DNA of 64,000 bases from Verrucomicrobiia bacterium (GTDB lineage: Bacteria > Verrucomicrobiota > Verrucomicrobiia > Limisphaerales > UBA1319), in NCBI GenBank assembly GCA_963664225.1, contig OY760937.1, positions 5,504,001 to 5,568,000 on the forward strand. Reading direction: 5' to 3'. The notes beneath the pieces are model-generated. The model ran no database searches and was not told where the DNA came from. It saw only the letters and a list, made by a program, of their open reading frames with translations. Shown here one piece after another: positions 1-60,728 of this stretch; the stretch's first letter is position 1; every line of letters starts with the position of its first letter. Position numbers and translations under genes: made by a program.

Positions 1-524
1 TGTCGCCCATTCAGGTGCCCAACGCCACTTGGTGGGAATTGGAACGGCGGCTTTCGCTGATCTATTTAGGCAAATCGCACAATTCCTCCGATGTGCATCG
101 AAAGGTTATTCGCGATCTTGAGAATAGCGGACCGGATTGTCCCAAGATCAATGCCTTGCGCGAGACAGCGGAAAAATCGCGGGACGCATTGTATGCCGGA
201 GATTTTCAGGCAATGGGAAGGGCGATGGTTGAGAATAACGAGGCACAGGGCAATCTACACTCTGAACTCGTAAGCCCTCAAGCCCATCGGGTCATTGAGA
301 TCGCCCGTGCCCATGGGGCCATTGGCTGGAAGGTCAATGGTGCCGGTGGTGATGGAGGATCGCTGACGCTGCTCAATGGGCCTCGATCCGATACCAAAAG
401 GCGGCTGATCAAAGAGGTCGAAGGTGAAAATTCGCTTTTTCAGAATATTCCAGTTTATCTGAGTCGTCATGGATTGAGAACATGGGAAACCTCTTTGGAG
501 GCCAACGGATCCCGTCCATTCTAA
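1..524 (+). CDS. GHMP-family sugar kinase, C-terminal part (heptose-7-phosphate kinase-like); truncated at window start
   Basis: C-terminal GHMP motif GAIGWKVNGAGGDGGSL and the LIYLGKSHNSS segment; the frame runs in from the window edge. Confidence 0.75.
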   Translation, partial: SPIQVPNATWWELERRLSLIYLGKSHNSSDVHRKVIRDLENSGPDCPKINALRETAEKSRDALYAGDFQAMGRAMVENNEAQGNLHSELVSPQAHRVIEIARAHGAIGWKVNGAGGDGGSLTLLNGPRSDTKRRLIKEVEGENSLFQNIPVYLSRHGLRTWETSLEANGSRPF

Positions 525-33760: not shown

Positions 33761-33813
33761 CCCGCACAGTTTGTGAGGTCGTGGTGGATTATAAAGAAGC
33801 TGGGGATTTTTGC

Positions 33814-45800: not shown

Positions 45801-48800
45801 TCGGGCGGTGCTTTCACAGAACATCATACTTGGTGACGAGGACGATATTTCGCTGGGCGTGTTTCCTCATGCCGGGGCATTGGCTCCCGGAGCGGGTTAT
45901 ACGGTGACGCGCACCGCACAAATCCCGGATGGAGTCAGCGGGCCGTATTATTTGATTGTGCAGACGGACGTTGGGAACGCGGTCAATGAATTCCTGTTTG
46001 AGGCGGATAACACAACGGTATCAGACCACACTTTCAACATCACACTGGCTGATTATGTCGATTTGAAAGTGGAGGATCTCAATGTGGCGGGGCCTGACAA
46101 TGCGGGCAGCTACACCATCACATGGAAGACCGCGAATCGCGGAAAGGCTGACTCGACGCAGAATTTCTATGAGCGGATACTGGTCAAGAACCTGACCTCA
46201 GGCGAGGTGCTGCTGGATCAGGAAGCCTTGACGACCAATGCGCTGCCCGTGAACAGCACGCTGGCACGCACGAATTCAGTGAAGACCTCGACGGCTGGAA
46301 ACTACCTTGTCAGAGTGACCACGGACTCGCGGAATAATATTTACGAATATGACGCCACCAGCCACGCGAACGCCGAGCGGAACAGCGTGGATGGTGCCTT
46401 CCAGATCACGCAAATCTACAATATCGCAGCGGGGGCGAATCCCGCAGGGGCGGGAACCATCACCGGCGCCGGGCAGTATGTCATCGGTTCCGTGGCCGAA
46501 TTGACCGCAATACCGGTCACGACGGATAAACCGTATTCCTTCCTGAACTGGACGGAGAACGGAACATTCCAAACCGCCAGCAATACATATCGGTTCAGCG
46601 TAACAAGGGACCGGCAGTTGACGGCGAATTTCGCGTTGCCGGTATTCCAGATCGCAGCCGTCAGCGTGCCTGCGGTCGGCGGGACGGTGACCGGAGCCGG
46701 GACGTACGCCTATGGAGTCACGAACACACTCAAGGCCATCGCCAACGATGGCTATCGGTTTACGAATTGGGTGGAAAACGGGTCTGCGATCAGCACCCAA
46801 ACCAGCCTGACATTTGGAGTGTACACCAACCGTGCGTTAATCGCGCGGTTTGTGGAGGCGAACGTGTTCCATGTGGTCACCACGGCCACGCTGCCGGCGG
46901 GAGTCGCGGCGGTGAGCGGCGCGGGCACCTACAACAACGGCCAGACGGTTTCGATTGTGGCGCCGGCCGCCGTAACGAATGGGCCGATGGCCTATACCTT
47001 CAAACGATTTACACAGAACGGGAATCCGTTCGGAAATGCGCCGTCGATTTCCAAGACGTTTTCAACGCTGGATTCGACGAACATCGCCATTGTCGCGGAA
47101 TACGATGGACGCAGCATTTTGCCGGTGGTGGTCAATGTTTCGGTGAATTACACCAATCCGGTTCCATTGACGACCAACTACGTGCTGACCTTCCAGTTCG
47201 ACCGGTCCATGCGAGGGACACCGGAACCCCAGATTGTGCTGACCAATGCGCAATCGGCGGTTCAACCCGTGGTCGCCAGCGGCGGCCAATGGAGCACGAC
47301 GGCTTCCAACAATGACACCTATTCCACGCCGCCCATTGTCTTGACGACCGGGATGGATGGCACGAACCAGGTTTGGATTTCCAAGGCGCAGGATTTATCA
47401 GGCCTGACGCTGGATCGAACGAACGTCTATGCCGCAATGGTGGATGCGACTCCTCCGGTCCAGCCGGTTTTCAGTCTCGTTTCCTCGAATGCCAGTTCCG
47501 TGGTGCTGGGCTGGTCCGGATATGCGGCTCCACAGGACCTGGCGGGATTCAGAGTTTATTTGGTGCAAACCAATTTCACGACATTGGCGGGTCTTTCCCC
47601 GATTACGGGACTGGCCCCAAGCGCGCGGAACTTCCAGGTTTCAAACCTCAGTCTCGACACCGATTATTATATTGCGGTCATCGCATCGGACATCGCCGGC
47701 AATAGCGCTGGCACTGTGACGCCGCTCAAGATCAAGCTGCCGACCACACTGCCTCCGAAAGTGACGATTGATGTGGCTGCCGTGGGTCCGAACTCGGCCC
47801 GCATTTCCTGGACTGGATATGACACCAGCGCCTTGTTTGGCTTCTCCGGATTCAGGCTCTACATGAAGGATTCACCGTTCGCGATTGTGAACGGAATGAC
47901 GCCCAGCGCGTCGTTCGATGCGCAAACGCGGCAAGCCCAAGTCGATGCCCTGGATCGATCGAAGAAATACTATTTTGCCGTGGTGGGTGTGAATGCAACG
48001 AACGGGTTTATTCCCGTGGTGACCACGCGGCAATGGTCGGATCCGTATGCGGGGAATATCGCCGCCAATCTGACCATCGGTGGAATCGATCAAACGGTGG
48101 ATATTTATCAAACCATGGTGGTGACCAACGGGGTGACATTGACGATCAACGCCGGAACAACACTTCGATTTGCGCCTGGATCGGGCATTGTCGTCGATCA
48201 GGGTTTGATCATGGCCCAGGGGACAGCCCTTGATCCCATTGTGTTGACCTCGTCTTCAGACACCAATGGCGGAAGCCCGGCCGCAGGGGATTGGGCCGGA
48301 TTGGTTGTCAGGGGCAACGCAGCCAATGCCTCCAAATTAACGCAGGTATGGGTCAAATACGGGCAGGGTTTGGTTTTGGACAATGCGACTCCGGTGGTCG
48401 ATGCCTTCTCGGCGGTTTACAATGCTCCGTCGGGACTTCGACTCACGAATGGGGCTGCGTTAACGACCAAAGATGCGTTGATCAGCTTGAACCAGGTTGG
48501 TGCGATGCAATCCGACACGTCGCGATTGATGGTTTGGAATTCGGTCATCAAGAACAACGCCACCAATGCCTGGGCTCGGGGAAGTCTTGGCCTTGTGGCC
48601 ACACAAAACTGGTGGGGCACGCCGCTGCAAGCGGACGTGGTGTCACGATTGACGGGAAATGTCGATGCGAGAGGGTTCCTGGAATCTGAACCGTTGCTGA
48701 CTCCCGCGGCGGGTATTGTGGGAGGATTGACGAGAGTGAGCAGCCAATCGTTGGAGCTGAAATTCGCATGTCGCACAGCGGAATCGATGCGGGCGAGTGA

Positions 48801-51800
48801 AGATTCGGCATTCAAAGGCACGTTTTTTGCGCCCTTTGCGTCACGACAGATCTTCCAGCTTTCTGACGGAGGAGGGCACAAGAGCATTTTTGTCCAATTT
48901 CGCAGCACAACAGGCGACACCAACACACCGCTATTATTGCAGGTGGAATATGTCACCTCCGGCCCGCAAATCATTAACTTCAACCTTGCCGAAGGCCAGG
49001 TCATCAGCCGACCGCTACTGGTTACCGGCATTGCGACAGCGGTGTTGGGAATCCAGAGCGTGGAATTCTACGCCGACAACGTTCTTGCCGACAGCGTCAC
49101 CACTGGAATTTATTCCCGGAGATGGGACATGCGAACGCTGAGTCCGGGAATTCATCGCGTCAAATTGCTGGCACGTGACAAAGGCGGAAGCATTGCGACG
49201 GAAGAGCGCAATGTGACGATCAATCCCACACCCGCACCCGCACCGTTCATCGTCACGCCCGCTAGCGACGGCATTCAGGCTCAAACCACTGTGTCCGTTG
49301 CGGGAACAGCGGAACCGAATATTGGATTGCGGCTGACAGACAATGGAACACTTTTGGCCACGTCCGTGGCGGATGCCACTGGTGGATTCAAGTTCGATAA
49401 TATGGTTTTGGTGGAAGGGGCCAATGAACTTGTCGTGATCGCATACGATGACATTGGAAGCAGTCGCTCCATCACCAGAAGAATCGTGCTGGATACGGGT
49501 GCGCCATCGGCCGTCGTTCTGGATGCGCCCATCTACGTTCCCAACTTCGGAGTCAACCTGAGCTGGAATTATGCAAAGGTGGGAGAAAGGCCTTCGAAAT
49601 TCCAGGTGTTCTGGGCGAAGACGCCGTTTATCTCCACAAATCAGGCCATAGGAAAGAGCCTGGTCCTCAGCCTAACAACCTATGCGGTGCAGGGATTGGC
49701 GGATGGGACTTATTACTTTGGGGTTTTGGGCTACGATGACGCTGGGAATCACAGCCCGATGTCGAGCCTGGTATCGCTTAAATACGATGCCACGGCACCG
49801 TCATTCAATATCAGTTACGACAAGTCGCCACCTGTTGGCGTTGGTCCGGTCCAGGTCACATTGACTGCAAGCGAGCCGCTCACTGGAACACCCGGCCTGA
49901 CACTGAAACCGGCGAATTCCACGCCCATATCGCTGAACCTGACCAATGTTTCGGCATCCAGCTATGTGACGGCGATCGTTATTTCCAATACGACGCTTTC
50001 AGGTCTTGCAATTTGGAATGTGAGCGGACAGGACGTTTCAGGAAATGTCTTTAACGGCGCACCGGCCGGACAACCGTTTAACATCGATGTGATCCAGCCA
50101 GTGGGATCCATCGCCACATTGCCGGCCAGTCCGGTTCAGACCCTTGTTCCGACCAACGTGAGTGTCAATCTGACCTTGAGCAAGCCGGCCAAGACCGGAA
50201 CGCCGCCGATCATCAAGTTCACTCCGCCAATCGGGGCCGAGGTGGGTGTCACCATGAGCGGAACGGGGACCAACTGGGTTGGATTGCTGCCATTGCAAAC
50301 CTCCATGGGTTCGGGTTTCGGACAATTCGCGATGACCGCCGTGGATGCGCTGGATAACACCGGCACCAATATCACCTCTGGCGCGGTGCTTGAAATCTAC
50401 AATACCGCGCTGCCATCGGCTCCTGAGACACCCACCAACTTTGTCGCCCGGACAATCGTCGGGGGACTGGTTCGATTGACATGGAATGCGGTGACGAACG
50501 CCGATATTTACCGGCTGTATCGAGAGCCGGGTTCCAACACGACCGCGCCCACGGCGCTGGTTGCGGACAATCTTTCGACCAACGGTCTGGATGATTTGCC
50601 GTCAGCCGACGGGCGTTACACCTACGCGGTGACGGCGTCGCGGCGTGGTTCCGAGAGCAACCCATCCAAGATCGTCGTTGGAGTGTCGGACAGGACTCCT
50701 CCCGGGGCTCCCACGAATGTGGCGGCGGAATTGGCCAGTTCAGGCGTGCAGATCAGTTGGCGGCCGCCTGCGGGTGAAAAGCCATTCAAATATCTGGTCT
50801 ATCGCAATGGGGTTCTGATTGGAAGCACCAGCACGGGGACCAACCTGGTCGATGCGCCGCCTCGAGGCGTGGCGAGCTATACCGTAAGTTCGGCGGATGT
50901 TACGGGCAACGAGAATTTGAGCACGCCGGCCACGATTGACATGCTGGTGGGGGCAGTGGAGCACCTGGCGGTTCTGGTCAATTCAGGCCAGGCGCCTGTG
51001 CTTTCCTGGACATCCAGCGACACGACGGCGATCGGTTTCAATGTCTATCGGAATGGGATCAAGCAAAATGCAAGCGCGCTGACGGTGGCCAGCTACACGG
51101 ACAATCTGCCGGTTGGCAACGATGCCATCGAATACGTGGTGCGGGCCGTTAATGCAAAGAGTGAAGAAAGCGCGCCGCGCGTGGTGAAGATCTATTCAGT
51201 GACGCTGGACTTGCTGGCGAATGCCGGTGGCGACACTGTCAGCAAGCCATTGGTGACCCGATATTTTGATAATTATCGGGTATCCGTGACGAATCTGACC
51301 GTCAACAACGTGTTTCCGCTGGAGACGGTGGAGTTGCGCCGTGTGGCTGGTGGTGGGGTCACAACGACACAAACCATTCCGGTCGGCCAGTCAGTGGCTT
51401 CCGGCAATTGGTATAATCGGGATGTGGTGTTTGCCAGTGCCACGACGGTCGATGCGCAATCCATGAGAATGCGCGTCATCCAATCGAGCGACCTGGGTGG
51501 CAGCTCGGTGATTTACCAGCGCACCTTCGATTTTGCCAGCGTGCTCGAACCGAGTCTCATGATGAGCCTTTCCGCGAGTCAACCGCCGCTGGCGGGCGGA
51601 CTGACGGATTTCGACGTGCGGCTGTATAACCGCGGCTATGCGGACATCAATGTGATTGTGGTGCGCGAAAACGGGGCGGCTCCCGGGGATGTTTATGTGG
51701 CGGTCAAGAATGCCCTGGGCCAGGAAGTGAGCCGAACGGCCTATCGTGGAACGCCCAAGGGGACCTTCTTCATGAACGATGGACGGGGTTATGTCCGGGT

Positions 51801-54408
51801 GACACCGGACGGATCCATCAACTTCACTGTGGCGGCAGTGCTGGTGCCCGAAGCACTCGGATCCAGCGCGAGCACCACATTCGAAGTGGCGGCCAGCCGC
51901 ATCTATTACCGGCTGGGCAATCCGGAAGTGCTGGAATCAGGTCCGATATCGGGCTCAATGTCATCGAGCCTGCGGCAGACAGATTATTTTGGAACGGCAT
52001 CGACGGATAAAACGGGTTATTCCAATGAGGATCCGATCGTCATTTCCGGGAAGGCCATTGTGCGATCCACGGGCCTGCCATTGGCGAATGCGCCTTTGAA
52101 GATTGGATTTGCAACCCGCGGGTTCAACTGGTTCAAGGAAACGACGACCGACAGTCAGGGCAACTACCAGTATTCCTATTCCACCATGCCTGGTTTTGGC
52201 GGCACCTTGATGTTGTGGGCCGCGCATCCGGATGTGTTCGACCAACTCAACCAGGCGCAAGTGTCCGTTTACAAGATGTATGCCACGCCATCCCGCGGGG
52301 AAATTCGGATGTCGAAGAACGACACGATGGATTTCAGCGTGAGCCTGGTCAATCCCGGGGACATTCCGTTAACTGGTTTTACGACCGAGTTTCATGCCTA
52401 TGTCGTGGATGGAACCAATTATAATGAAATAACGACGATCACCGGAACGAACCTTCTGGGAGCGGGATTCCAAGTGGAGCAGGGGAAGAACCAGACGGCG
52501 GGATTTCGATTGAAGGCGTCTCCAAACGCGCCTGACAAGGCAGTGATCGAGTTTGACGTTCGTTCCGAGCAAGGAGCGCTGGCGACGTTTGTGGGGAATG
52601 TGACCCTGTTGCCGGCCCTTCCGGTGCTTAACGTGGTCAATCCAGCCGTGGGCTATCTGGAGGTCAGTCTGGATCGCGGCAAGATATTGAGCCGACAGGT
52701 GACCGTTGTGAACGGCGGTCTCAAGGATCTCAAGGGGGTTACATTAGTGGCTCCGACCAATGTGACGTGGATGAACGTCAACCTGCCCGTGTCCGATGAC
52801 GGCACGATCCATCTGCCTGATATTGGGATTGGCCAATCGAACACCTTCAGTGTGGTGTTCACACCGCCGAGTGACACACCGCTCAATTATTACAACGACT
52901 TTATCGCGATTCGCGGGACCAATGCGCAGACGGAGTTTAAAGTGCGTTTGTATGCGCTGGTTACCTCCGATCAAAAGGGGTCGGTGCAATTCTTCGTGGA
53001 CAATAACCTTGGGCAGTCGGTATCGAATGCCACGGTGCGGTTGCGCAGCAGTTTGCTGCAATTGGAGCTGACACCATCGATTACAGACGGCAACGGCCTT
53101 GTGACGGTGGATGGGTTGCAGGAAGGCGATTGGTCGTGGCAGGTGAACGCGCCGGGGCACAGCAGCACGGTGGGGACCATCACGGTGGTGCCTTCGCAGA
53201 CCGTGCAGGTGCATACGCGGCTGGCCAAGAGCCTGGTGACGGTGACATTCAATGTGGTTCCAGTGCCCTACACGGACAAATACGAAATCAAGATCGAGCA
53301 AACGTTTGAAACCCATGTTCCGGTGGGTGTGCTCGTGGTCGATCCGCCTTTCAAGGATTTCAAGAAGATCGATTCCGGATTCGAGGCAAACTGGATTGTC
53401 ACCGTGCAAAACTACGGTTTGCTGGAGATGACCGATGTGACCATCGAGGGCGCGGAAACCGGGGGCGGCAAATTGACACCGCTCATCGAATTCATTCCGG
53501 TTCTTTTGCCGATGCAAAAAGTCGAAGTGCCTTTCACATTTGCCTATAACGCTTCGGCAGGAACCACGACCAACACGACCCAGTCATTGAAAAGACAGCG
53601 AATACCCGACTCGGACGATCTTGCCCAGTGCGTTGCGGGGATGATGCCTTTTGGCAGCCTTGCGGATCCCAATATCTTCAGGGGACTGGCTGCCATATTC
53701 CAGGCGAGAGAGAGGTGCATATCCGATCTGGATCCGCAGACCGCATTGGCGTCCGTGGGTATCATATTCGCCATAGGCCAGATCGCAGGCGCGATCGGCA
53801 GCGCCCAGGAATTCATCGTCGGGGCCATTGGGGGATTGATCAGTTGCATCATCGGCAATTTTCTTCCCTTACCCGACAGCGGCCCGTTCTCGTCATACCC
53901 GGGACCGCGATCAGACAACGCATTCCAGATTGGCAATTTGCAGTGCTTCGATGCGGACACACCGGTATTGATGTCGGATGGAACCTCAAGGCCGATTGCA
54001 TCCATCAAGGTGGGCGACCGGGTGAAGACCGGTTCCTACGCTGGAAATGTGGCCGAAGTGCGCGAAGTATTTACGCGCGACCAAACACCCGTGCGAAAGC
54101 TGACGATCAGCGATGGGCTGGAGCATGGAGTGGATCGGGAGATCATTACAACGGACGAACACCTGTTCTGGGTGGACGGGCGCGGATGGATGGCCGCATG
54201 CAATCTGAAAGGCGGGGATTACCTTGTGGATTCAAATAACGAGCGGATCAAGGTGCTGACCAATCACAAGCTGGACAAGGCGATACGCGTCCATTCGTTC
54301 CAGTTAAAAGGCGACAGCGCCTTTTATGCAAACGGGGTGCTTGTGCGCGATATGTGCGGTTTGGGTGGAGTGAAACAGGTCGCCGCAGGGAAGGGGGTGG
54401 CGCAATGA
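33814..54408 (+). CDS. Giant (~6860 aa) exported multidomain surface protein with a C-terminal Hint domain
   Basis: Uninterrupted 20.6-kb ORF with Sec signal MSHQTLFLCTALFAMATHA. Contains a C-type lectin (EPN/WND), three FG-GAP blocks (GDFNGDGKLDLAVAN), PPC-like and LamG domains, CARDB, InlB-B-like and FN3/Ig repeats, and a Hint domain starting CFDADTPVLMSDG. Confidence 0.92.
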   Translation: MSHQTLFLCTALFAMATHAAQPPYATDFESGVGAEWSLPNVDASEIGSFSRFSGRFTNDKQTLTLSNMTVGVSYSLFFDFYAIDTWDGSYSGTGDYFNVGVDTNQVFHYTFSNYNGDPPSNPQSYPGVPDVGRYNMGFAGYVDAIYRNIEIPFIASNTVVQISFQGQNLEDISNESWGIDNVSVRPSSQTQTTTISYTTLPPDHSTNGFVLDGFGIGALRNLLGTTATNGANYSFREAGANGVFGDSDDAIIPLNLNFNGYNSVNFTLTNAPLQPGKYRFETKAGLLDTNSNAVAVFAREFVIANPVGGQIETPNNDSIATATALPMAENPAGSGFFAAFGLGLFSAKGEADYWRFEGEARDKLTIRLEANANGIYPQLYLQDSTGQTLSSVGGDYYGTAQIQNYVISKPGTYFVKVWSDNQTGKYKLRVDQSRGPQLEQEDNNAQSTANVLGLTFSTGTYQARIAGALTGNDSGAGDVFSLGTLNAGNSISVALAMPVGGSLVTSAAILSIEGAGAGNGVSLATNTAGFLNFIVASNDLYYVRIATANSNLNLNAQYLLSITVVDGVPPVVVSTSLPDGGQATTNLIDKISVLFSEDLAQSVNNMGQRYLTYGGRRYAVTPPALSWEDAETYAQSIGGHLVTINSPLENEWIRRQFSSYGSVWIGYTDKAAEGTWVWADGSPTKYTHWNSGEPNNSGGNENYGVMLTSGFWNDVNAATTAYGVVEIGTGGLDTDGDGLANAIDPFPNDALNGFELRGAGADGLFKTADDRVYALVADSYSGGLAVTLRVTDGPLLPGKYQFVLTTSIKDRAGNSMAGNYTNSFVVTALSGYVTYNGAGDVTPISGSVAAAPDGSLVNYSDAPTGRYPRGIAAGLLDGGTNLDLAVANYGSGDVSILLGAGDGTFYRSTNYATGNGAATVTMGDLNKDNRMDLVVVNNSANNVTVLMGNGDGTFQSGTNYAVGSSPIGLVLRDFNGDGKLDLAVANQSAKTISVLMGNGDGTFKTAVNYGTGNQPYSLVAADFNGDGKVDLAVANYGESTVSVLNGNGDGTFNAKVDYPTGTGPRGLDVGDLNGDGKLDLVTGNTDAGTVSILAGNGDGTFAAKADYASGGSDVYQILLADFNGDNRLDVVVPGFGNSRLCILLNRGNGTLESPMTYPAGNNAIWAAAGDFNGDQRLDLAVVNYYASTVTVLNGVGAKLLTEDPIGSGIRIGAGRGQLKNQSDVDVWNFTAKAGDLVSVAVEVPGNPAASQLYYRIYNAAGDTLTDFYTSYNGWGQSAPYRFAASGTYWIGVQRYYDYFSEYRLRVTLASPPTQMETEDNSDISHANKPALELASGHLTASVLGYFGVGDANGDYFNFGNLAAGATIQLTMKQPSSSGLAGVLGIYDAGGNLVANGAPGATPVSYTIPPGGGSNYYARVMGAGIYGLHAASGNSALVFDGNADFVMVTNAPSLDLSNQFSLEAWVYPRNFAGRDRAVISKVGGTGGNNGYQLVFGQDGKLSLLFNASGESWPANSVSTPPLDILNRWTHIAATYDNDTMRLYVNGQLAASNTIGAKSVVKSLSNLRIGNDDNAYVFFDGLIDEVRVWNTARSASAILTGMSQSLTGAESGLAGYWPFNEGSGGVASDLSPNKNSGILGNGVASQQPAWVALRTTDQPAAGIFAQYLMGVDIADAVAPLITSITLPAANSTNQIMIDRFTITFNKDMMASTVTNSLSYDLRSAGPDGLFNTGDDVLYPVINQNYSSGLSSSYLIGDGPLQSGSYRLTAKTALKDRSGNALAADYKRDFVVAGVAGFITENRSNDTQNTATSLSIAPGNLNDGSFYQGDSVGVGSRPYSIVSGRFNGDNHLDLATANSSDGTISILLGSGSGTFTNATNISVGGNPYNVATGDFNGDGKADLSVTKDSPYQVVILLGAGDGTFQAFTNYTVANSPRVQAVGDFNKDGKLDIAVACQSVDKVSVLLGNGDGTFKTNVDYPVGSQPYGIAMGDFNKDGKLDLVVGDYNGDQVSVLMGKGDGTFDSAVNYPTGGGPRAVAVGDMNGDGTLDIVTANSQGNSLSMLEGKGDGTFLAKRDFGMTIYDTYQVLLTDLNGDGRSDVVIAAYGAGRLGVLLNRGNWAFENYEDYSMPSGIGVVAGDFNEDLRTDLAVASYSNNKVTVFSGNNNELLAEDPAGSGIRSSAARGNVSGVNDVDYWSFSAKSGDILALSVETPGNPAASQLYYTVYYPNGAVVSEFAADSYYGWGNLSPVRLNVSGTYTVGVRRYYDYVGEYRIRVTLAPDKYQMEVEPNNDIAHANAPTLVLANGHQTANVVGSIGEGDGSGDYFRLGNLSGGTLIHLGLTQPTVSPLQDILTIYDTNGTIITNSAIRGTSLDFTIPTGGDGAYYARVQSANPGAVQFSGGNDYVNVGNWSPGTQWTVEAWVKPNAAPSGRHGIAGGFNSCADWGIVLQDGQFGIATKPPSGCSITIPSGEAVTLNQWYHVAATCDGTNAQLYVNGVLKATGPVSVNYSANGNGTWIGSEACCGNETFSGLIQEVSIWERPLSGAEITSGMSHALAGTETGLAGYWKLNEGVGTVALDSSTRNRNGTLVNGPVWARSDLAGFASAALPGTVIFDRLYAIYALNIDLSDSQPPSIVAVSLPDEGSTNTTIVDRFTINFNKDMMATTVTNAATYELRSSGANGIFDTADDEIYTISCDGYTSGLTASYRISDGPLQPGFYRFTIKTALQDRTGNPLPQNYTRKFKVEGVDGFILETRNNNTLGQATSLSRARTATPDGSFRQAENVNVENNPRFAGVADLNGDGKLDMVVANSGAGNVSVLLGVGDGTFQPRTNYATGSGPTGVALADYDKDGKIDAVVANYNANTITLLQGNGDGSFQAITNITTGNHPLYLISGDFNRDGKPDFGVTCNGENKIYVYIGHGDGTFDAPSIYSTGTNPEILAAGDFNGDGKPDLAVGNYRSANVSVLLGNGDGSFQAPVQFATGAGPAAVAVGDLQNKGKLDLVVANYDAGTLSVLRGDGAGNFGTNTDYSTGGTQPYILTLADINGDGFLDVVVPNSGSGNVAVMLNLGDGTFAAPVTYTTGYRPFQVVAKDFNQDGRLDFAAVCYGNAYVSLYLGNDTEYLAEDPTGSGIRTSASRGRMTTSTDADYWSFTGKAGDWLIVAVDTPGTPAGSALDFRVDGPNGANVTDFQGGYYGYGQCAPVQLPFTGTYTILVKKYYDYQGEYRMRVTTAPSSYQLEQEDNSAINRANTLNLAAANQHRAANVLGYIGTGDDSGDYYSLGNLGAGTTITLKTQRPLTSGLWPAMAIYKTGGTPVTNSVGGITNLSYTIPSGGDGAYYIGVAKSDFGPRAGLRLDGSQAVGYGSWLTNQAFSVSMWIKPDASQTSYADIMDNNHRGGVNWVIQQDGGNVNSYSFGVADGGLPPTFYITPGNWHHLMVSRDAARLDRVYLDGQVVSSTTGTGDINYDGNQFLRSGRWGGGGRNWNGVIDEVHIWDHALTALELQRDIGYATAPGDAGIIGFWKFNEGSGSVVKDYSAFARDGAIEGTPQWGSFAEQPYDPLFAQYILKVDLSDTLPPVITSVSLPDEGSTNSAILDTFTVAFSKDMLASTVTDPGSYEFRGAGDDGILGTGDDILYTIQCDGYGSGLSAAYHIMDGPLQPGLNQLTISTAMKDRSGNPIAAPFIRTFAIGSIGGFAFETRNNNTAATATPITLIEDPTGFKSGGGRGNLSSASDVDFWKFDGHTNESVVLSVEIPDHPGGSQLHYQIFAPNGNNLADFTSDYYGSGLSSVLLLPTNGVYTIRVEHYYNYFYEYRIRLGVAVPPMQMEAEGNDDIAHANAIALAPGGQGRYGSMAGCIRTSGDLDYYSIAGITNGSTVFVSVRLPSTSRLSPVVSLYDKNNQYLAEAPGGRPNDGVAQVRITQDGAYYAVVRGSEGVGGITEQYVVDFQVIPSGNVNFPNLQVTSLIPPTGLITSGGSISFGFSVTNIGSVATPAAAWSDRAVLSQNIILGDEDDISLGVFPHAGALAPGAGYTVTRTAQIPDGVSGPYYLIVQTDVGNAVNEFLFEADNTTVSDHTFNITLADYVDLKVEDLNVAGPDNAGSYTITWKTANRGKADSTQNFYERILVKNLTSGEVLLDQEALTTNALPVNSTLARTNSVKTSTAGNYLVRVTTDSRNNIYEYDATSHANAERNSVDGAFQITQIYNIAAGANPAGAGTITGAGQYVIGSVAELTAIPVTTDKPYSFLNWTENGTFQTASNTYRFSVTRDRQLTANFALPVFQIAAVSVPAVGGTVTGAGTYAYGVTNTLKAIANDGYRFTNWVENGSAISTQTSLTFGVYTNRALIARFVEANVFHVVTTATLPAGVAAVSGAGTYNNGQTVSIVAPAAVTNGPMAYTFKRFTQNGNPFGNAPSISKTFSTLDSTNIAIVAEYDGRSILPVVVNVSVNYTNPVPLTTNYVLTFQFDRSMRGTPEPQIVLTNAQSAVQPVVASGGQWSTTASNNDTYSTPPIVLTTGMDGTNQVWISKAQDLSGLTLDRTNVYAAMVDATPPVQPVFSLVSSNASSVVLGWSGYAAPQDLAGFRVYLVQTNFTTLAGLSPITGLAPSARNFQVSNLSLDTDYYIAVIASDIAGNSAGTVTPLKIKLPTTLPPKVTIDVAAVGPNSARISWTGYDTSALFGFSGFRLYMKDSPFAIVNGMTPSASFDAQTRQAQVDALDRSKKYYFAVVGVNATNGFIPVVTTRQWSDPYAGNIAANLTIGGIDQTVDIYQTMVVTNGVTLTINAGTTLRFAPGSGIVVDQGLIMAQGTALDPIVLTSSSDTNGGSPAAGDWAGLVVRGNAANASKLTQVWVKYGQGLVLDNATPVVDAFSAVYNAPSGLRLTNGAALTTKDALISLNQVGAMQSDTSRLMVWNSVIKNNATNAWARGSLGLVATQNWWGTPLQADVVSRLTGNVDARGFLESEPLLTPAAGIVGGLTRVSSQSLELKFACRTAESMRASEDSAFKGTFFAPFASRQIFQLSDGGGHKSIFVQFRSTTGDTNTPLLLQVEYVTSGPQIINFNLAEGQVISRPLLVTGIATAVLGIQSVEFYADNVLADSVTTGIYSRRWDMRTLSPGIHRVKLLARDKGGSIATEERNVTINPTPAPAPFIVTPASDGIQAQTTVSVAGTAEPNIGLRLTDNGTLLATSVADATGGFKFDNMVLVEGANELVVIAYDDIGSSRSITRRIVLDTGAPSAVVLDAPIYVPNFGVNLSWNYAKVGERPSKFQVFWAKTPFISTNQAIGKSLVLSLTTYAVQGLADGTYYFGVLGYDDAGNHSPMSSLVSLKYDATAPSFNISYDKSPPVGVGPVQVTLTASEPLTGTPGLTLKPANSTPISLNLTNVSASSYVTAIVISNTTLSGLAIWNVSGQDVSGNVFNGAPAGQPFNIDVIQPVGSIATLPASPVQTLVPTNVSVNLTLSKPAKTGTPPIIKFTPPIGAEVGVTMSGTGTNWVGLLPLQTSMGSGFGQFAMTAVDALDNTGTNITSGAVLEIYNTALPSAPETPTNFVARTIVGGLVRLTWNAVTNADIYRLYREPGSNTTAPTALVADNLSTNGLDDLPSADGRYTYAVTASRRGSESNPSKIVVGVSDRTPPGAPTNVAAELASSGVQISWRPPAGEKPFKYLVYRNGVLIGSTSTGTNLVDAPPRGVASYTVSSADVTGNENLSTPATIDMLVGAVEHLAVLVNSGQAPVLSWTSSDTTAIGFNVYRNGIKQNASALTVASYTDNLPVGNDAIEYVVRAVNAKSEESAPRVVKIYSVTLDLLANAGGDTVSKPLVTRYFDNYRVSVTNLTVNNVFPLETVELRRVAGGGVTTTQTIPVGQSVASGNWYNRDVVFASATTVDAQSMRMRVIQSSDLGGSSVIYQRTFDFASVLEPSLMMSLSASQPPLAGGLTDFDVRLYNRGYADINVIVVRENGAAPGDVYVAVKNALGQEVSRTAYRGTPKGTFFMNDGRGYVRVTPDGSINFTVAAVLVPEALGSSASTTFEVAASRIYYRLGNPEVLESGPISGSMSSSLRQTDYFGTASTDKTGYSNEDPIVISGKAIVRSTGLPLANAPLKIGFATRGFNWFKETTTDSQGNYQYSYSTMPGFGGTLMLWAAHPDVFDQLNQAQVSVYKMYATPSRGEIRMSKNDTMDFSVSLVNPGDIPLTGFTTEFHAYVVDGTNYNEITTITGTNLLGAGFQVEQGKNQTAGFRLKASPNAPDKAVIEFDVRSEQGALATFVGNVTLLPALPVLNVVNPAVGYLEVSLDRGKILSRQVTVVNGGLKDLKGVTLVAPTNVTWMNVNLPVSDDGTIHLPDIGIGQSNTFSVVFTPPSDTPLNYYNDFIAIRGTNAQTEFKVRLYALVTSDQKGSVQFFVDNNLGQSVSNATVRLRSSLLQLELTPSITDGNGLVTVDGLQEGDWSWQVNAPGHSSTVGTITVVPSQTVQVHTRLAKSLVTVTFNVVPVPYTDKYEIKIEQTFETHVPVGVLVVDPPFKDFKKIDSGFEANWIVTVQNYGLLEMTDVTIEGAETGGGKLTPLIEFIPVLLPMQKVEVPFTFAYNASAGTTTNTTQSLKRQRIPDSDDLAQCVAGMMPFGSLADPNIFRGLAAIFQARERCISDLDPQTALASVGIIFAIGQIAGAIGSAQEFIVGAIGGLISCIIGNFLPLPDSGPFSSYPGPRSDNAFQIGNLQCFDADTPVLMSDGTSRPIASIKVGDRVKTGSYAGNVAEVREVFTRDQTPVRKLTISDGLEHGVDREIITTDEHLFWVDGRGWMAACNLKGGDYLVDSNNERIKVLTNHKLDKAIRVHSFQLKGDSAFYANGVLVRDMCGLGGVKQVAAGKGVAQ
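53944..54351 (+). other. Hint (intein-like) domain within the giant protein, 136 aa
   Basis: Block A C-FDADTPVLMSDG..RPIASIKVGDRV; block B ITTDEHLFWV (TxxH); C-terminal FYANGVLV-RD instead of ..VLV-HN. Confidence 0.88.
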
Positions 54409-57400
54409 AAACGACTCCATCGATTTTAATTCGAAATCTCATGAAGCCCATTGAACGCATACTGAATGTTGCCCCTAAATGGATTGGCTCATGCGTTTGC
54501 GGTTTGTTTCTATACTGCGCCATGACTGCTTCGGCACAGCAGGAACAGCGCGGACTCTGCGCTCAGGTCAAGATCGTGATCCTTCAAGAATTGACGTTGG
54601 AGCGCATCGGTTTTGAGGCCACTCTTGAAGTGACCGATAATGACGGGAATGATCCGATCACAGACTTTTTCGCCGATCTCACGTTCGAGAATCCGGCGTT
54701 GTCCACGAATGGCGTGGCCAACGATGCCTCATCCCTGTTTTTCGTGCGCGCGCCGGAACTGCAGAATATTTCCGACGTGAATGGCGGGGGAGTGATCGGG
54801 CCCACAAAGAAGGCGGTGATACGCTGGTTCATCATTCCCAAGATCAAGGCTGGTGGAATCACCCCTGATGGAGTCCGTTATAAAGTGGGCGCCAAGCTCA
54901 GCGGGAAGTTTCAGGGAATACAATTGCCCAGCGATGTGTTGCAGGCCCTGCCGGACACGATTGTGGTCAGGCCCGAGCCGCAATTGGAAATCACCTATTT
55001 CCAACCGAGAGATGTGCAAGGTGACAATCCTTTCACGCCCGAGGTGGAAAGCCCGATTCCATTTTCCATCGGCGTGCTGGTAAAGAACTCAGGCTATGGC
55101 ATTGCGCACAAACTTAAAATCGCGTCGCAGCAGCCGCAAATTGTGGAAAACAAGCGGCATCTATTGTTGGTGGCGCAATTGCTTGGGTCGCGGGTTAATG
55201 ACGCGCCGCTCGATAATGCGAACCTGACCGTGGTGCTGGGCGATTTAAACCCGGGGGAGGCGCAGAAAGCCTCCTGGGACATGATCACATCGCTCTCGGG
55301 AGAGTTTACCGATTTCAAGGCTTCGTTCACCCATGCTTCGGACCTGGGTGGTGAGGAAACCTCGGTGATCAAATCGATCAACGCGTATTTCATCGCCCAT
55401 GAGGTTCTTAACGACATGCCGGGCCGCGATAAATTGCTCGATTTTCTCGCGGACACGGATCGTGACGAAAACATGATACCGGACGCGCTTTACGAAAGTG
55501 AGGGGAATGTCGAGCCCGTCAACTATCTGGCGAATACCACCATCGATGCGATATCGGGCACACCCGGTGCCTACAGGATCAGCCTGGATGCGGATCGTTC
55601 CGGCTGGTGCTATATGAGGTTGAACGATCCCGGGCAAAACCGGTTGAAAATCGAGAGCATCGTTCGTTCGGACGGCAAGGTGATCAACCCCCATAATATG
55701 TGGACCAATACCCGGTATGCCAAAGTGACCAATGCCCGGTCCGATTATCTCAACTTGTTCGATCTCGTTGATCTCAAAAAATACACTTATACCGTGCAGT
55801 ATGCTCCATCGAGCATCGATACGACACCGCCTGCGACCACTTTGCGGTTTGTCGGCACTTCCGCTTATTCCAACGGGAGATACTACATCACGCCCGATGC
55901 TCAAATGTACTTCACAGCGGAAGATCAAAGTCCGGTCAGTATTTATTACAGCCTGACAAACAGCGCGTTTATACCGGCGTATCCATTTGTGCTGCGCACG
56001 CCGGGAGAATACGCGCTCAAGTATTACGGGCAGGATGCCAGTGGGAATCGGGAGGCAACCAATTCCACCGTGCTTGTGGTTGGGAACGCGGGTCCGACTT
56101 TATTAAGCTTCCTTGGCGCGACGCAGGCGGTGATTACCTCCGGAGACGCGTTGTCCGTTCGCCCGAATTCCGCCGACATTCGTTACCGCGCGGGATTCAG
56201 CCCCGTGCCGGTGGATGCCTATCTGGATATTTTCCAGGGAGTCATGGGCTGGCCTGTGGTTTCAGGGGTGCCATCGTCGCCCACTGCCGCCACTCTTGCG
56301 CATTTGGTCATCCGCGGCGACTGGGTGGATTTTTACAAATACAGTCTGGATGGCGGCGCGTGGAGCGCTGAAAAGCCGGTGGCGCAAATATTGCATTTGC
56401 TCAATCTGTCCGCAGCCCAGCATAGCGTGAAGGTGCTGGGACGCTCCGCATACGGAGACTATGGCGCGGAAACCAATGCGGTGGCGGTTCAATGGACCGT
56501 TGATCCAGCGGCTCCGCCGACCCAGATCACGGGCACGCCGGCCACCCCAACGAGCGATCTTTTTGCGACGCTCAAAGTTGCAGGCACGGGAGTTAATTTG
56601 TACCGGTGGACATTGAGCAACGGCTATTATCGCGCGCCCGCCGGTGTGGCTGTTCCTCTTTCGATCACGAATCTGGGAGCGGGACCACAAAACATTTCTG
56701 TCATCGGCCTGTACTCAGGCGCGTGGCAGCCAACGAATAATCCAACAACGGCTGCCTGGACGGTGGATCCGGCTTACGGCTCCGATTATTCATCCAAGAC
56801 GCTTGTGCGCAGTGTGACCAATCGGAATGTTGGATTCCTGCCGCAGAGTTTTGCCTGGGATGGCCGGAACGAGCAGGGGACGATCATGCCTCCCGGGTGG
56901 TACACCGTGCGGCTGACACTCAAGGATCAGGTGGGGCGGTCCACCTACGCGACCAAGCTGGTGCAACTGGGCGAATTCGCCGGGTCTTTCAATGCGCTCG
57001 CCGCCGCCAGTCGAGGACCTGAGAATCCGAATGCGCGCGGACGTTGGGCCGTCTGGCAGGATCAAAGCTCGGGCAATTCGCAAATCTATGCGCAGGATTT
57101 GCTGATACCCGGCAATGCCCCGTTCGGTTTGACGACCAGCACTCGCAGCCAGGAGAAGCCAAGAACAGATGGCCGCTTTGTGGTCTGGCAGTCCCGGCAA
57201 ATCAATGGCGGGTGGGACATATGGATTCGCGATCTATTGTCGGGCGGCCAGGCCTCAGCACTGACCTCGACAACCGATGTCGATGAAACCAATCCAACGG
57301 TCGATTGGCCCTGGGTCGTTTATCAGTCCAAGTCGTCCCTGGACGCCAAGGCGCCGCAACAGTTGAAGGCGGTGAACCTGGTAACAGGGGTCACTCAATC

Positions 57401-58436
57401 GGTTTCAGACAGCACGCAGGATGAACTGGATCCGGACGTGCAGGCGGGCCGGGTGGTCTGGCAGGATTCCCGGGATGTGGGAGCCGGGGAGATCTACTTT
57501 AAGAACCTTGAGAGCGGCGAACTGAGGCGTTTGACGACTAATGCCTTTGGCCAGTATCATCCCGCCATCCACGGCAACGAGGTCGTGTGGCAGGATAATC
57601 GCAACGGCCAGGTGGACATTTACGCGTTCGACTTGCTTCGGGACACGGAGGTGCGGATCACGCAAACCGCCGAAAACGAGACCCGGCCGTTCATCGATGG
57701 GCCGTGGTGCGTTTGCGAGGAGGATTCCCTGGGCGTCTCGGTGGCCAATATACGGCTCATCCATCTGCCTACGCGACAAATCGTGCCGATCACGCGCACG
57801 ATGACCACCAAGTCGCGTCCGGCATTGGCCGCCAGTCACGTGGTGTGGCAGGATAGCGCCGGTGGGCAGAATACGATCATGTCCGCGGAGTTGCCGTCGT
57901 TGCAGCCCGTGTTCCAGAATCAGAATATCGTGGCGGTGACCGAGGCGCTGGCTGCCAATCAGCATGATGCCAGAACTTTGCTGTCGCGATGGAATGCGCA
58001 GGCCGGTGTGACGGAAGTGACGCGAGTCGCTTCGTTGACGCCCACGGTTACTTTTGAGACGGCTCGATGGAACAAAGGACAATTCAGCGGAACCAATTTC
58101 GTGCTGGCCGGCGGTTCGTTTTTGTGGGTGAAGTTCGATACGAATCAAGTCATCGACCTGGGGGTCAATGGCCGGGGCTTTGCCGATCTGAGCGCGGGTG
58201 TCAATGCCATCAGCTACACCGCGTTTCCCAATGATTATTCCGCGTATCAAATGGTGCGGCAGTTGGGTGTGGACAAGGTCAATGCGATCCGAATTCTCGA
58301 ATCGGAATCGGGTCGCTGGCTGGTGGCCGAAGTGCGAAACAGCCGGTTGATTGGTGATGATTTTCCGATCCCGCGCGCGGCGGTGGTCTTTGTGGATATG
58401 GATTCGGCAGTGACGCAGTGGCGGCCGGAACCCTGA
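54405..58436 (+). CDS. Large exported partner protein (1343 aa): N-terminal beta-rich domain, Ig-like repeats, FlgD-Ig-like domain, beta-propeller repeats
   Basis: ATGA overlap with the giant gene stop; signal ending ASA-QQ. FAWDGRNEQGTIMPPGWYTVRL (FlgD-Ig) and repeated VVWQDxR..GxxDIY units (Methanosarcina-surface/TolB-like propeller). Confidence 0.85.
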   Translation: MKTTPSILIRNLMKPIERILNVAPKWIGSCVCGLFLYCAMTASAQQEQRGLCAQVKIVILQELTLERIGFEATLEVTDNDGNDPITDFFADLTFENPALSTNGVANDASSLFFVRAPELQNISDVNGGGVIGPTKKAVIRWFIIPKIKAGGITPDGVRYKVGAKLSGKFQGIQLPSDVLQALPDTIVVRPEPQLEITYFQPRDVQGDNPFTPEVESPIPFSIGVLVKNSGYGIAHKLKIASQQPQIVENKRHLLLVAQLLGSRVNDAPLDNANLTVVLGDLNPGEAQKASWDMITSLSGEFTDFKASFTHASDLGGEETSVIKSINAYFIAHEVLNDMPGRDKLLDFLADTDRDENMIPDALYESEGNVEPVNYLANTTIDAISGTPGAYRISLDADRSGWCYMRLNDPGQNRLKIESIVRSDGKVINPHNMWTNTRYAKVTNARSDYLNLFDLVDLKKYTYTVQYAPSSIDTTPPATTLRFVGTSAYSNGRYYITPDAQMYFTAEDQSPVSIYYSLTNSAFIPAYPFVLRTPGEYALKYYGQDASGNREATNSTVLVVGNAGPTLLSFLGATQAVITSGDALSVRPNSADIRYRAGFSPVPVDAYLDIFQGVMGWPVVSGVPSSPTAATLAHLVIRGDWVDFYKYSLDGGAWSAEKPVAQILHLLNLSAAQHSVKVLGRSAYGDYGAETNAVAVQWTVDPAAPPTQITGTPATPTSDLFATLKVAGTGVNLYRWTLSNGYYRAPAGVAVPLSITNLGAGPQNISVIGLYSGAWQPTNNPTTAAWTVDPAYGSDYSSKTLVRSVTNRNVGFLPQSFAWDGRNEQGTIMPPGWYTVRLTLKDQVGRSTYATKLVQLGEFAGSFNALAAASRGPENPNARGRWAVWQDQSSGNSQIYAQDLLIPGNAPFGLTTSTRSQEKPRTDGRFVVWQSRQINGGWDIWIRDLLSGGQASALTSTTDVDETNPTVDWPWVVYQSKSSLDAKAPQQLKAVNLVTGVTQSVSDSTQDELDPDVQAGRVVWQDSRDVGAGEIYFKNLESGELRRLTTNAFGQYHPAIHGNEVVWQDNRNGQVDIYAFDLLRDTEVRITQTAENETRPFIDGPWCVCEEDSLGVSVANIRLIHLPTRQIVPITRTMTTKSRPALAASHVVWQDSAGGQNTIMSAELPSLQPVFQNQNIVAVTEALAANQHDARTLLSRWNAQAGVTEVTRVASLTPTVTFETARWNKGQFSGTNFVLAGGSFLWVKFDTNQVIDLGVNGRGFADLSAGVNAISYTAFPNDYSAYQMVRQLGVDKVNAIRILESESGRWLVAEVRNSRLIGDDFPIPRAAVVFVDMDSAVTQWRPEP

Positions 58437-59309: not shown

Positions 59310-60728
59310 ATGATAAAACGAAAATGGGGTTTTTCATACGGGAATGGGGCATTAAGAGTTCTTGCCTTATCCCTACTCCTGAATCTTGCCGGCATGATTG
59401 GCGCGGCGGGGGCGGTGTCGATATCCGGCGTTCAGGCTGTGAATGTCAGATCCGCCGGATTTGCCCTGGTGTGGTCCGTGGCGGGCGCTTCTGATCCAGT
59501 GGTGTCTATTTTTGCCGATCCGCAGGGCAAGACCAACCTGGCTGGGATTGTTGGGATCGAATGGTTCCCCTTGAATGGTGGGAATACCATCGGGGATAGC
59601 GTGTATGAAAAGCGACAGACTCAAACCGCCACACGCGTGGAAACCAAAAAGGTGGGACTGGTCATGGCGCAAATATCAGGCTGCAAGCCGGCGACGCAGT
59701 ACTATTATCGCGTGGGCGCGAAGGTTAACGGCGTGATCGCGGCACAATGGCCGGATTCTGGAGATTTGCCTGCGATTACGACCGCAGAATCCAACGGTTT
59801 TATCATCGACTCCAAACAACTTCTGCTGACCATTCCCGGTGTGCGCACATATGGGCGCATCATGACGTTGTCCACCACGAACGCAGCATATCCGCTGGCG
59901 GCGGTGGTAGGGGATGGAGCGGACACCAACCAGGTTTACTTCAATCTGTCCGAGCTGCTGTCAAAAGACGGGAAGACGAATTATGCAGGATCGCTGGACG
60001 AGCGGTTGCTGGTTGAAATGCTGGGACCCTCGCTTGGACAGGCCACGCAAAGTTTCTACCTGGGATATTCCTCCAATTTTGTGGTGGGAACAGCGGAGGA
60101 GCGCCTCTTTGTTTTGGACTCCCTGTCCCTGACTTTAAGTGAAAATATTTTGTATGCAGGCAGCAATGGGTTTCTGGGCATCTATTTGAAGTGCAATGCC
60201 GCGATCACCAATGTCACGGTGGATCTGGATCTGCCGTTGAGCCGGTTCACCAATATCAATGTTGTGCCGCTTGCGGTTCAGGGCGGACAGGCCACACTGG
60301 AGGGGAATCGAACGCTGCATCTGAATTTGCGGGTGGATTCGCATCAAACTTACTCCCAGCCGACCCTGGTGGCCCGACTGGCCTATCAGACCGTGCTGGA
60401 TCAGATTTCGGCCATTGTGCCTGTCACCATTACCGGCATGACCTCGACAAGGCCCGATGGATTGCCGCTGGCCGCAGTTACCGGGTTTGGGAGTCGGATC
60501 ATCATTGTCGCAAAACAGCCCATACTTGAGGCGATGCGAGGGGCAGAGACTCCGAGGTCACTTATCGTTTACGGACGCGAAGGGGCGCAGTATCGCATTC
60601 AGAGTTCAACAGCGCCGGAATTAAAGAATTGGCCCGATTACATGAGCGTGACCCTGACCAATATCGCGCATCGTCTTGACGGTTTGACTCCCACCAACTT
60701 GAATCGTTTCTATCGTGCTCAACAGTAA
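59310..60728 (+). CDS. Exported protein with FN3-like and cohesin-like beta domains and a C-terminal Y.I.SS...W...RFYR module
   Basis: Signal peptide; ISGCKPATQYYYRV (FN3/purple acid phosphatase N-like); C-terminus YRIQSSTAPELKNW...NRFYRAQQ. Confidence 0.7.
   Translation: MIKRKWGFSYGNGALRVLALSLLLNLAGMIGAAGAVSISGVQAVNVRSAGFALVWSVAGASDPVVSIFADPQGKTNLAGIVGIEWFPLNGGNTIGDSVYEKRQTQTATRVETKKVGLVMAQISGCKPATQYYYRVGAKVNGVIAAQWPDSGDLPAITTAESNGFIIDSKQLLLTIPGVRTYGRIMTLSTTNAAYPLAAVVGDGADTNQVYFNLSELLSKDGKTNYAGSLDERLLVEMLGPSLGQATQSFYLGYSSNFVVGTAEERLFVLDSLSLTLSENILYAGSNGFLGIYLKCNAAITNVTVDLDLPLSRFTNINVVPLAVQGGQATLEGNRTLHLNLRVDSHQTYSQPTLVARLAYQTVLDQISAIVPVTITGMTSTRPDGLPLAAVTGFGSRIIIVAKQPILEAMRGAETPRSLIVYGREGAQYRIQSSTAPELKNWPDYMSVTLTNIAHRLDGLTPTNLNRFYRAQQ

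Follow-up and report, generated by a model that had tools for sequence, protein, structure and literature searches.

An asparagine-less Hint domain at the end of a giant secreted protein from a Verrucomicrobiia bacterium: a putative Hedgehog-type self-cleaving module

A giant secreted protein of a Verrucomicrobiia bacterium ends in a Hint domain whose N-terminal catalytic residues are intact and which lacks the terminal asparagine of inteins. The protein is encoded in a stretch of 64,000 nucleotides (GenBank assembly GCA_963664225.1, contig OY760937.1, positions 5,504,001 to 5,568,000), which is referred to here as the window and whose numbering is used throughout. Its gene is the first of a conserved cluster of four, the others encoding a β-propeller protein, a rhodanese-like protein and a cohesin-like protein. 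Known Hint domains include inteins, pretoxin modules that release toxins, and the cholesterol-transfer domain of Hedgehog proteins. From strict conservation and from analogy with characterized relatives we consider it quite probable that the domain studied here is an active Hint which cleaves itself on its N-terminal side only, with formation of a thioester and no cleavage at its back end. The domain is a member of a separate clade, found without exception at the ends of giant secreted proteins. The wider proposal, in which the C-terminal 154 residues work once only, as a Hint module of the Hedgehog type, and the thioester is finally transferred to an acceptor, is put forward tentatively, since we rate the whole chain at a little short of an even chance.

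The terminal Hint domain and its relatives

The giant gene comprises 6875 codons when counted from a GTG start; if translation is taken to begin with the first ATG (position 33814), the number is 6864, and the database representative of the protein has 6850 residues; the length of 6860 residues given in an earlier note on this DNA is thus approximate. The N-terminus is hydrophobic and, as read off the sequence alone, resembles a signal peptide. Pfam recognizes FG-GAP, Laminin_G_3, C-type lectin, PPC, Big_5, CARDB, fn3 and CarboxypepD_reg domains along the chain, and these are followed by a C-terminal module and, at the extreme end, by the Hint domain, which is recognized as PT-HINT. Cysteines amount to 22 in 6875 residues, and six of them fall within the last 260.

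The earlier note had described a Hint domain at the extreme C-terminus with an 18-residue tail and no toxin behind it, an intact Gln-Cys1 junction and an intact block-B TxxH, and in all of this, including coordinates and residues, it was correct. Cys1 is residue 6722 of the open reading frame (ORF; codon 53944–53946) and directly follows the sequence ...GNLQ. Block B reads TTDEH, which provides T70-x-x-H73 (54151–54162). The domain ends with ...FYANGVLVRD, so that R135-D136 (54346–54351) stand where inteins have His-Asn. D136 is followed by the 18-residue tail MCGLGGVKQVAAGKGVAQ and by a TGA stop codon (54406–54408), which shares nucleotides with the start codon (ATG) of the gene downstream.

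Profile searches against Hint, PT-HINT, bacterial intein-like (BIL) and Hedgehog models, which the earlier note had suggested, brought a single family above its gathering cut-off. This was PT-HINT (PF07591; 39.9 bits, E 6e-10, cut-off 27.7), whose match spans profile positions 9–116 of 137 and stops short of the C-terminal motif; no other PT-HINT match was obtained from the 5.78-Mb genome, which consists of a single contig. The Hint, Hom_end_hint, Vint and Hint_2 models all remained under their cut-offs, Hint_2 (PF13403) with 13.5 bits against 28.4, and the Hint/Hog model (PF01079) reached 23.7–24.5 bits against 29.7 with only positions 2–88 of its 213 aligned. When 36 family members were compared, matches were weak and near-equal for PT-HINT (29/36), Hint (26/36), Vint (25/36) and Hint_2 (14/36 at E<=0.01), which indicates that none of these curated models covers the clade. 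No model for it exists in Pfam or NCBIfam.

By sequence, the closest solved structures are the BIL domain 2lwy of Clostridium thermocellum and the gp41-1 intein. An AlphaFold2 model was built with the last 254 residues as query and 36 family sequences, and its mean predicted local distance difference test score (pLDDT) in blocks of ten residues was 90–98 over query residues 101–230, i.e. over most of the Hint domain. VIA-align superposed the model on 2lwy with a Z score of 21.6 and a root-mean-square deviation of 1.6 Å over 131 residues, on the BUBL BIL2 structure 6y75 with Z 20.9, on gp41-1 with Z 19.7, and on the Hedgehog structures 6tyy and 1at0 with Z 18.3 and 18.2, respectively. The top Foldseek match was BUBL BIL2 of Tetrahymena (E 2.4e-11). 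With the predicted fold, Cys1 and the T70/H73 pair all present, the domain is a member of the Hint superfamily. In the superpositions D136 lies opposite the terminal asparagine of inteins, the model end at query residue 236 corresponding to residue 440 of the RecA intein, 125 of gp41-1 and 454 of PI-SceI; the following cysteine, Cys138, is therefore located at +2. Position +1 is Met in the window and Leu, Arg or Gln in relatives. Of the features by which inteins are recognized, a His-Asn end, a position inside a conserved host protein, a +1 nucleophile and a functional C-extein were not found, as the domain ends in Arg-Asp, has its cysteine at +2 and is followed by an unconserved and disordered tail.

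A HMMER scan with the last 254 residues against 1.84 billion database representatives returned 5041 hits at E<=1e-3, 271 of them at E<=1e-10. Counts for relatives refer to the best 150 of the 5041 hits, of which 123 carry 147 full-length Hint domains and 27 were fragments that were dropped. Among the 147 domains, 94 are of the window's type, that is, they lack His-Asn, possess a cysteine at position 138, have a tail of 4–62 residues (mode 18) and always stand at the end of the protein; 51 are of the His-Asn type and two are neither. In the window's type Cys1, H73 and W82 are invariant (94/94 each), and position 70 is occupied by Thr in 90 and by Ser in four sequences. Hence the question raised in the earlier note, whether homologues keep Cys1 and TxxH while lacking His-Asn, can be answered in the affirmative. 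Phe2 is found in 87 of the 94 domains, and the residue preceding Cys1 is Gly in 47 and either Gly or Ala in 68.

Position 136 of the 94 domains is Asp in 56 cases, Gln in 18, Glu in 13, His in seven and Asn in none, and the block-F histidine is retained in 14, as compared with 36 of the 51 His-Asn domains. To this extent the earlier view that the residues for C-terminal cleavage had disappeared together is supported. It does not extend to the penultimate histidine, which is kept in 53 of the 94 (position 135 being Arg in 16 others, Gln in 15, Glu in six, Tyr in three and Phe in one). Neither is the sequence ..RDMC a mere loss of the usual motif: its cysteine, Cys138, is invariant both in the 94 domains and in all 31 genomic sequences described below, Gly139 follows in 84 of the 94, and the same column holds a cysteine in only nine of the 51 His-Asn relatives.

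The His-Asn domains are also placed differently, 45 of the 51 having 60–1935 residues behind them, several as tandem arrays. In some of these (P0013, P0028, P0043, P0055, P0078, P0101, P0116) three to four full-length Hint domains are arranged head to tail, with junctions such as ...LVHNKGGGG|CFL..., and P0090 contains up to seven matched stretches. A FastTree phylogeny was computed from core columns 1–134 only, i.e. with the trait columns excluded. In this tree one branch parts the 94 domains from the other 53 (Shimodaira-Hasegawa-like support 93), so that one change accounts for the trait, a value as low as which was found in none of 500 label shuffles; since 147 rows are represented by 136 columns only, much of the inner branching order is not resolved, and the separation hangs on that single branch.

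A pattern scan with one genome per species identified 30 further loci, and counts of 31 given here comprise these loci plus the window. Nearly all are labeled as Verrucomicrobiota metagenome-assembled genomes, one as Pontiellaceae and one as Desulfospira, a few labels being evidently odd. In all 30 the Hint domain closes a very long frame, which remains open to the edge of the locus in 29 cases and has 1263 residues in one, and the frames end with LV[HR][DEHQ]xCG plus a short tail. Cys1, T70, H73, W76, W82, C138 and G139 are each present in 31 of 31 sequences; position 136 is Asp in 28 and Glu, His and Gln in one each, with no asparagine (0/31). Judged by this pattern of conservation, the terminal Hint without asparagine is a conserved design under selection and not a remnant. 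In the literature covered, which did not include the original BIL papers (Amitai 2003, Dassa 2004), no description was found of a terminal, toxin-less and Asn-less Hint clade on giant Verrucomicrobiota proteins; the PT-HINT literature, as far as search listings tell, concerns polymorphic toxins.

Proposed chemistry and competing explanations

After export and folding of the protein, Cys1 would attack the carbonyl group of Gln6721, aided by T70 and H73, and thereby turn the Gln6721-Cys6722 junction into a thioester, a step that we infer from the strict conservation of these residues and the established chemistry of inteins and Hedgehog. By analogy, the thioester would probably be relayed to Cys138, as it is to C143 of Hedgehog and to the Cys+1 of inteins; alternatively, in an oxidizing compartment a Cys1-Cys138 disulfide might hold the reaction until it is reduced. 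Cleavage at the back end would not occur. Instead, an outside nucleophile would resolve the thioester, upon which the Hint domain and the tail would be shed and the giant protein would acquire a new C-terminus. Because the cyclizing asparagine is absent from the entire clade, the acyl group could leave only to such an outside nucleophile, for which we propose a lipid or glycan of the envelope, or else one of the proteins encoded in the conserved cluster of four genes.

The role assigned to Cys138 is modeled on Hedgehog. There, C143 forms a branched thioester, has a pKa of 4.5, and is described as "equivalent to C+1 in intein splicing" (PMC12054796); the C1-C143 disulfide needs reduction by protein disulfide isomerase, and mutation of C143 blocks processing (PMC3051819). 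The Hedgehog-style asymmetry to which the earlier note had pointed is strengthened by the second invariant cysteine of the present clade, a putative parallel of C143. We lean slightly toward transfer to an acceptor other than water as opposed to plain hydrolysis, since nothing else is conserved in the discarded part that would justify keeping a domain of 136 residues, and also since BUBL BIL2 provides a precedent for a Hint thioester passing a C-terminus to a lysine without ATP (PMC8616854). Carried to its end, such transfer would amount to an enzyme-free "sortase": the self-made thioester would move from Cys1 to Cys138 and then be handed over to an amine or hydroxyl group on a lipid or glycan of the envelope, or else to a lysine in the propeller or cohesin-like partner, thus covalently anchoring or assembling a surface fiber of 700 kDa. 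It is possible, although we would not wager on it, that the domain functions in this way, and equally tentative is the corollary that bacteria may here possess an equivalent of the complete Hedgehog chemistry, which would have arisen within the radiation of BIL and pretoxin HINT domains.

Several points weigh against the Hedgehog-type reading. Cleavage, thioester and adduct are all postulated entirely from conservation and analogy. Cys138 is at +2 of the intein Asn position and not at +1, and the ranges aligned by VIA-align, which end with 101..238 = 258..402, would place Hedgehog C400 nearer to position 136, Cys138 being within about two residues, so that the two cysteines are counterparts only putatively. 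At two positions the copy in the window carries one of the less common residues, namely Gln at −1 (2/94) and Arg135 (16/94). An Asp at the last position allows slow splicing in a few atypical inteins, and reactivity of the back end is thus not strictly excluded. With regard to the acceptor, the Hint domain is followed by a disordered tail only and not by a Hedgehog-like sterol-recognition region, and no ligase, other enzyme or obvious acceptor was recognized among the propeller, rhodanese-like and cohesin-like neighbors. The further suggestion of the earlier note, that the thioester serves to ligate or anchor the protein, therefore found no supporting result, the active-site cysteine of the rhodanese-like protein being moreover lost in 22 of 29 orthologues.

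The same conservation evidence would also suit a domain that merely removes itself, the thioester being resolved by water, or by a small thiol and then water, in a maturation or shedding device without ligation. The missing adduct-recognition region, a tail that is disordered and unconserved as protein, and the lack of a recognizable ligase or acceptor in the cluster agree with this explanation, as does the self-cleavage of BIL domains in vitro (reviewed in PMC7765530). We nevertheless rate it slightly below transfer, to which it comes close in likelihood. More than 90 diverged representatives have retained a whole domain with two invariant cysteines, while the piece to be discarded is otherwise unconserved, and hydrolysis needs Cys1 and TxxH only, which leaves Cys138-Gly139 unexplained unless it acts as a latch. 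If the latch were permanent, a stable Cys1-Cys138 disulfide outside the cytoplasm would make the domain a structural cap, a folded terminal knob that is cleaved rarely or never. Such a cap is compatible with the location of the two invariant cysteines, one at either terminus of the Hint fold, since in every Hint structure solved so far the two termini come together at the active site; three further conserved cysteines just upstream suggest an oxidizing location, and the C1-C143 disulfide of Hedgehog is documented (PMC3051819). However, the Hedgehog disulfide is a transient precursor state. T70 and H73, moreover, are catalytic and structurally unneeded, yet they have been kept (Thr or Ser at 70 and His at 73 in 94/94; T70 and H73 in 31/31), which renders the cap improbable.

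True splicing, or a BIL-type ligation of the giant protein to its own short tail, would require that Asp136 (or Gln) cyclizes and that Cys138 acts as acceptor. Splicing is known for inteins whose last residue is Asp or Gln, position 136 is one or the other in 74 of the 94 domains, and the downstream cysteine is invariant. Even so, this explanation has very little in its favor: from an acceptor cysteine at +2, an S-to-N shift to its own amine cannot restore a normal peptide bond at the junction, the Glu or His found at position 136 in 20 of the 94 cannot cyclize likewise, the block-F histidine and often the penultimate one are lost, and the segment to be ligated, the tail, is disordered, shows no conservation and owes its sequence in part to the ribosome-binding site of the next gene. 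The idea of a decayed pretoxin HINT, left over from a polymorphic toxin that has lost its tip, can appeal to PT-HINT as the best Pfam match and is otherwise contradicted by the data. According to the earlier note, close homologues with a canonical His-Asn and variable toxin tips would speak for such decay. His-Asn or a downstream domain occurs in none of the 94 representatives of the same type and in none of the 30 loci, the His-Asn relatives being set apart from them in the tree by one branch; the catalytic residues and Cys138 are invariant; and the gene end is coupled translationally to a conserved neighbor that is not an immunity gene. We have rejected this candidate, whose remaining probability is negligible.

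The flanking regions and the four-gene cluster

The features discussed are compiled in Table 1. The module in front of the Hint domain is rich in Ala and Gly, moderately hydrophobic and without a match to any Pfam family, and its three helices were predicted by AlphaFold2 with pLDDT values of 50–74. Its cysteines are conserved at ORF positions 6617 (30/31), 6646 (28/31) and 6689 (31/31). The Kyte-Doolittle maxima over 19 residues are 1.9–2.0 in the window and below 1.6 in three of the ten relatives for which values were output; a membrane hairpin is therefore not established, the predicted hydropathy being borderline in the window.

Table 1. Positions of the features of the giant gene and its downstream neighbors in the window.
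Feature	Position	Strand	Basis
Giant secreted-protein gene	33781..54408	+	ORF and Pfam search
Cys-bearing three-helix module before the Hint domain, ORF residues 6617-6694	53629..53862	+	AlphaFold2, conservation
Linker to the scissile bond, ending ...IGNLQ; Gly-rich in relatives	53863..53943	+	Alignment
Hint domain, 136 residues, ORF residues 6722-6857	53944..54351	+	Pfam, AlphaFold2, structural alignment
Tail of 18 residues, predicted disordered, unconserved as protein	54352..54405	+	AlphaFold2, alignment
Invariant Cys138-Gly139, two residues past the Asn-equivalent position; proposed relay or latch cysteine	54355..54360	+	Conservation
Gene of 1,343-residue secreted protein, translationally coupled	54405..58436	+	Pfam, ORF overlap
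Secreted rhodanese-like protein, 273 residues	58474..59295	+	Pfam Rhodanese, 62 bits
472-residue protein with N-terminal hydrophobic anchor or signal, fn3-like domains and cohesin-like β-sandwich	59310..60728	+	AlphaFold2, Foldseek

The tail has pLDDT values below 50 (query residues 239–254). Its coding sequence harbors a Shine-Dalgarno-like GGGGG (54393–54397) of the next gene, whose start codon overlaps the stop codon of the giant gene (ATGA, 54405–54408) and whose product has a signal peptide of its own. A GGAGG-like stretch in the last codons of the giant gene is present in 19 of 31 sequences, and in 25 of 31 the TGA stop is overlapped by an ATG or GTG. Both the ribosome-binding site and the start codon of the next gene thus lie within the end of the giant gene (54386–54408) and shape the last four residues family-wide. 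A recurrent tail ending, E-V-[AS]-[RKP], was considered as a sorting signal and rejected because it is accounted for by the GGAGG ribosome-binding stretch plus the NNA codon that the ATGA overlap enforces.

The second gene of the cluster encodes a protein with an N-terminal domain of about 450 residues without known family, Ig-like domains and a TolB-like β-propeller. In every one of the 30 loci its orthologue, with 44–64% identity, stands immediately behind the giant gene, and so it does in four of four further genomes, each of which has one giant frame with terminal Hint (5112–6459 residues) adjoining it. Among 401 sampled genomes of the phylum, five possess a full-length orthologue, the window's genome included. 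The protein is represented by at least 779 database clusters, and the source names listed for them are generic ("hypothetical protein", "beta propeller repeat protein" and, once, "FlgD immunoglobulin-like domain containing protein"); PF26549 is listed for its homologues, and for one of these, P0182, which is recorded under Pedosphaera parvula, the ESM Atlas yielded weak DUF11-like leads only. The domain of about 450 residues also occurs in other long frames (about 700 to 9,641 residues) of 14 further genomes of the phylum, among them G200, G163, G081, G288 and G351, and thus appears, from its sequence distribution, to be a module common to several families of giant proteins. Another homologue of the propeller protein, P0264 (1,610 residues), includes a rhodanese domain recognized by Pfam; here genes two and three of the cluster are apparently fused, which supports a functional link between the propeller and the rhodanese-like proteins.

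The rhodanese-like gene is present in 28 of 30 loci, the two misses being loci cut by contig ends. In the window its loop is CX5R-like (VCAEGLGR) and includes the active-site cysteine. Among 29 orthologues the loop residue is Cys in seven, Tyr in 21 and Phe in one, a pattern that suggests a mostly inactive rhodanese fold in which sulfur transfer is not a family trait. Sulfur or thiol chemistry of this neighbor on the thioester or the cysteine pair was rejected as a general mechanism on the same count of seven in 29. The gene of the 472-residue protein was detected in 26 of 30 loci, in two of them weakly, and the four misses are at contig or locus ends. Its AlphaFold2 model (mean pLDDT 71) resembles cohesins most closely, e.g. 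2vn5 with a Foldseek E value of 4.5e-10 and a TM score of 0.72 (normalized to the target). No dockerin was recognized in the four-gene cluster, a sequence search of the Protein Data Bank with the propeller and the 472-residue proteins gave no match, and BLASTP revealed no homology between the C-terminal portion of the giant protein and its neighbors. When a complex was predicted from residues 33–405 of the cohesin-like protein and the C-terminal 254 residues of the giant chain, the score was 0.00 twice, a result that speaks neither for nor against binding. As a whole, the cluster neighbors look non-enzymatic from their predicted domains.

Upstream of the giant gene, positions 31236–33542 are occupied by a gene whose product combines DUF5703_N with a GH95-like glycoside hydrolase domain (Pfam). 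About 4.7 kb 5' of the giant gene lies an ORF with integrase-core domains (rve, rve_3; 28287–29123), probably encoding an insertion-sequence transposase.

Relation to known Hint domains and anchoring systems

The clade described here is a large and coherent group of bacterial proteins with the arrangement of Hedgehog: a secreted cargo, Cys1 and TxxH, no asparagine, a second invariant cysteine, and nothing behind. If transfer takes place, giant surface proteins would possess a self-contained means of being anchored or joined without sortase or ATP, and a simple bacterial model would become available for the two-cysteine relay that was shown for Hedgehog only in 2025. If the thioester is merely hydrolyzed, the reaction would still be an unannotated maturation step, and it would bear on how the C-terminal ends are to be interpreted in hundreds of giant Verrucomicrobiota proteins.

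Like the Hint domain of Hedgehog and Hog proteins (1at0, 6tyy; PF01079), the domain has a secreted cargo in front, Cys1 and TxxH, and no terminal asparagine. The Hedgehog cut-site motif is GCF, and Gly-Cys-Phe is frequent at the cut site of the present clade as well. Each has a second invariant cysteine toward the C-terminal edge of the fold, and Cys138 here may correspond to C143 there, with the context x-C-G in the clade and SCY in Hedgehog. The clade further differs in having a disordered tail of 4–62 residues in place of an adduct-recognition region, in a PF01079 score that is below cut-off with partial coverage of the profile in the window's copy, and in its bacterial hosts and cargos of three to seven thousand residues. 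Since the fold is no closer to Hedgehog than to BIL domains or inteins, the likeness may be convergent.

The best match in both sequence and fold is to A-type BIL and pretoxin HINT domains (PF07591; 2lwy), which also belong to large secreted bacterial proteins and have no +1 nucleophile. In contrast to the window's type, these domains have His-Asn as their last residues and set free what lies behind them; asparagine is absent from 94 of 94 domains here, there is nothing downstream to be released, and the His-Asn relatives from the same search fall across one branch of the tree. BUBL BIL2 of Tetrahymena (6y75, 6tmm), the top match in Foldseek and close in VIA-align, differs in that it is situated between two ubiquitin-like domains, retains the terminal asparagine (the crystallized protein is the mutant N143A), and is eukaryotic and intracellular. 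With B-type BIL domains (Hint_2, PF13403) the clade shares the lack of the intein C-terminal motif and, as proposed here, the cleavage on the N-terminal side that B-type domains show (PMC7765530), but the Hint_2 profile stays below its cut-off in the window's copy and matches just 14 of the 36 family members.

At the functional level, an analogy can be drawn to sortases and to the type IX secretion system with its C-terminal domain (CTD) and PorU. In both systems a surface protein loses a C-terminal piece by way of an acyl intermediate, and its new end becomes linked to a molecule of the envelope, for which a separate transpeptidase and a sorting signal are used. The analogy is one of function only, without homology, and differs in that the giant protein itself would make the acyl intermediate.

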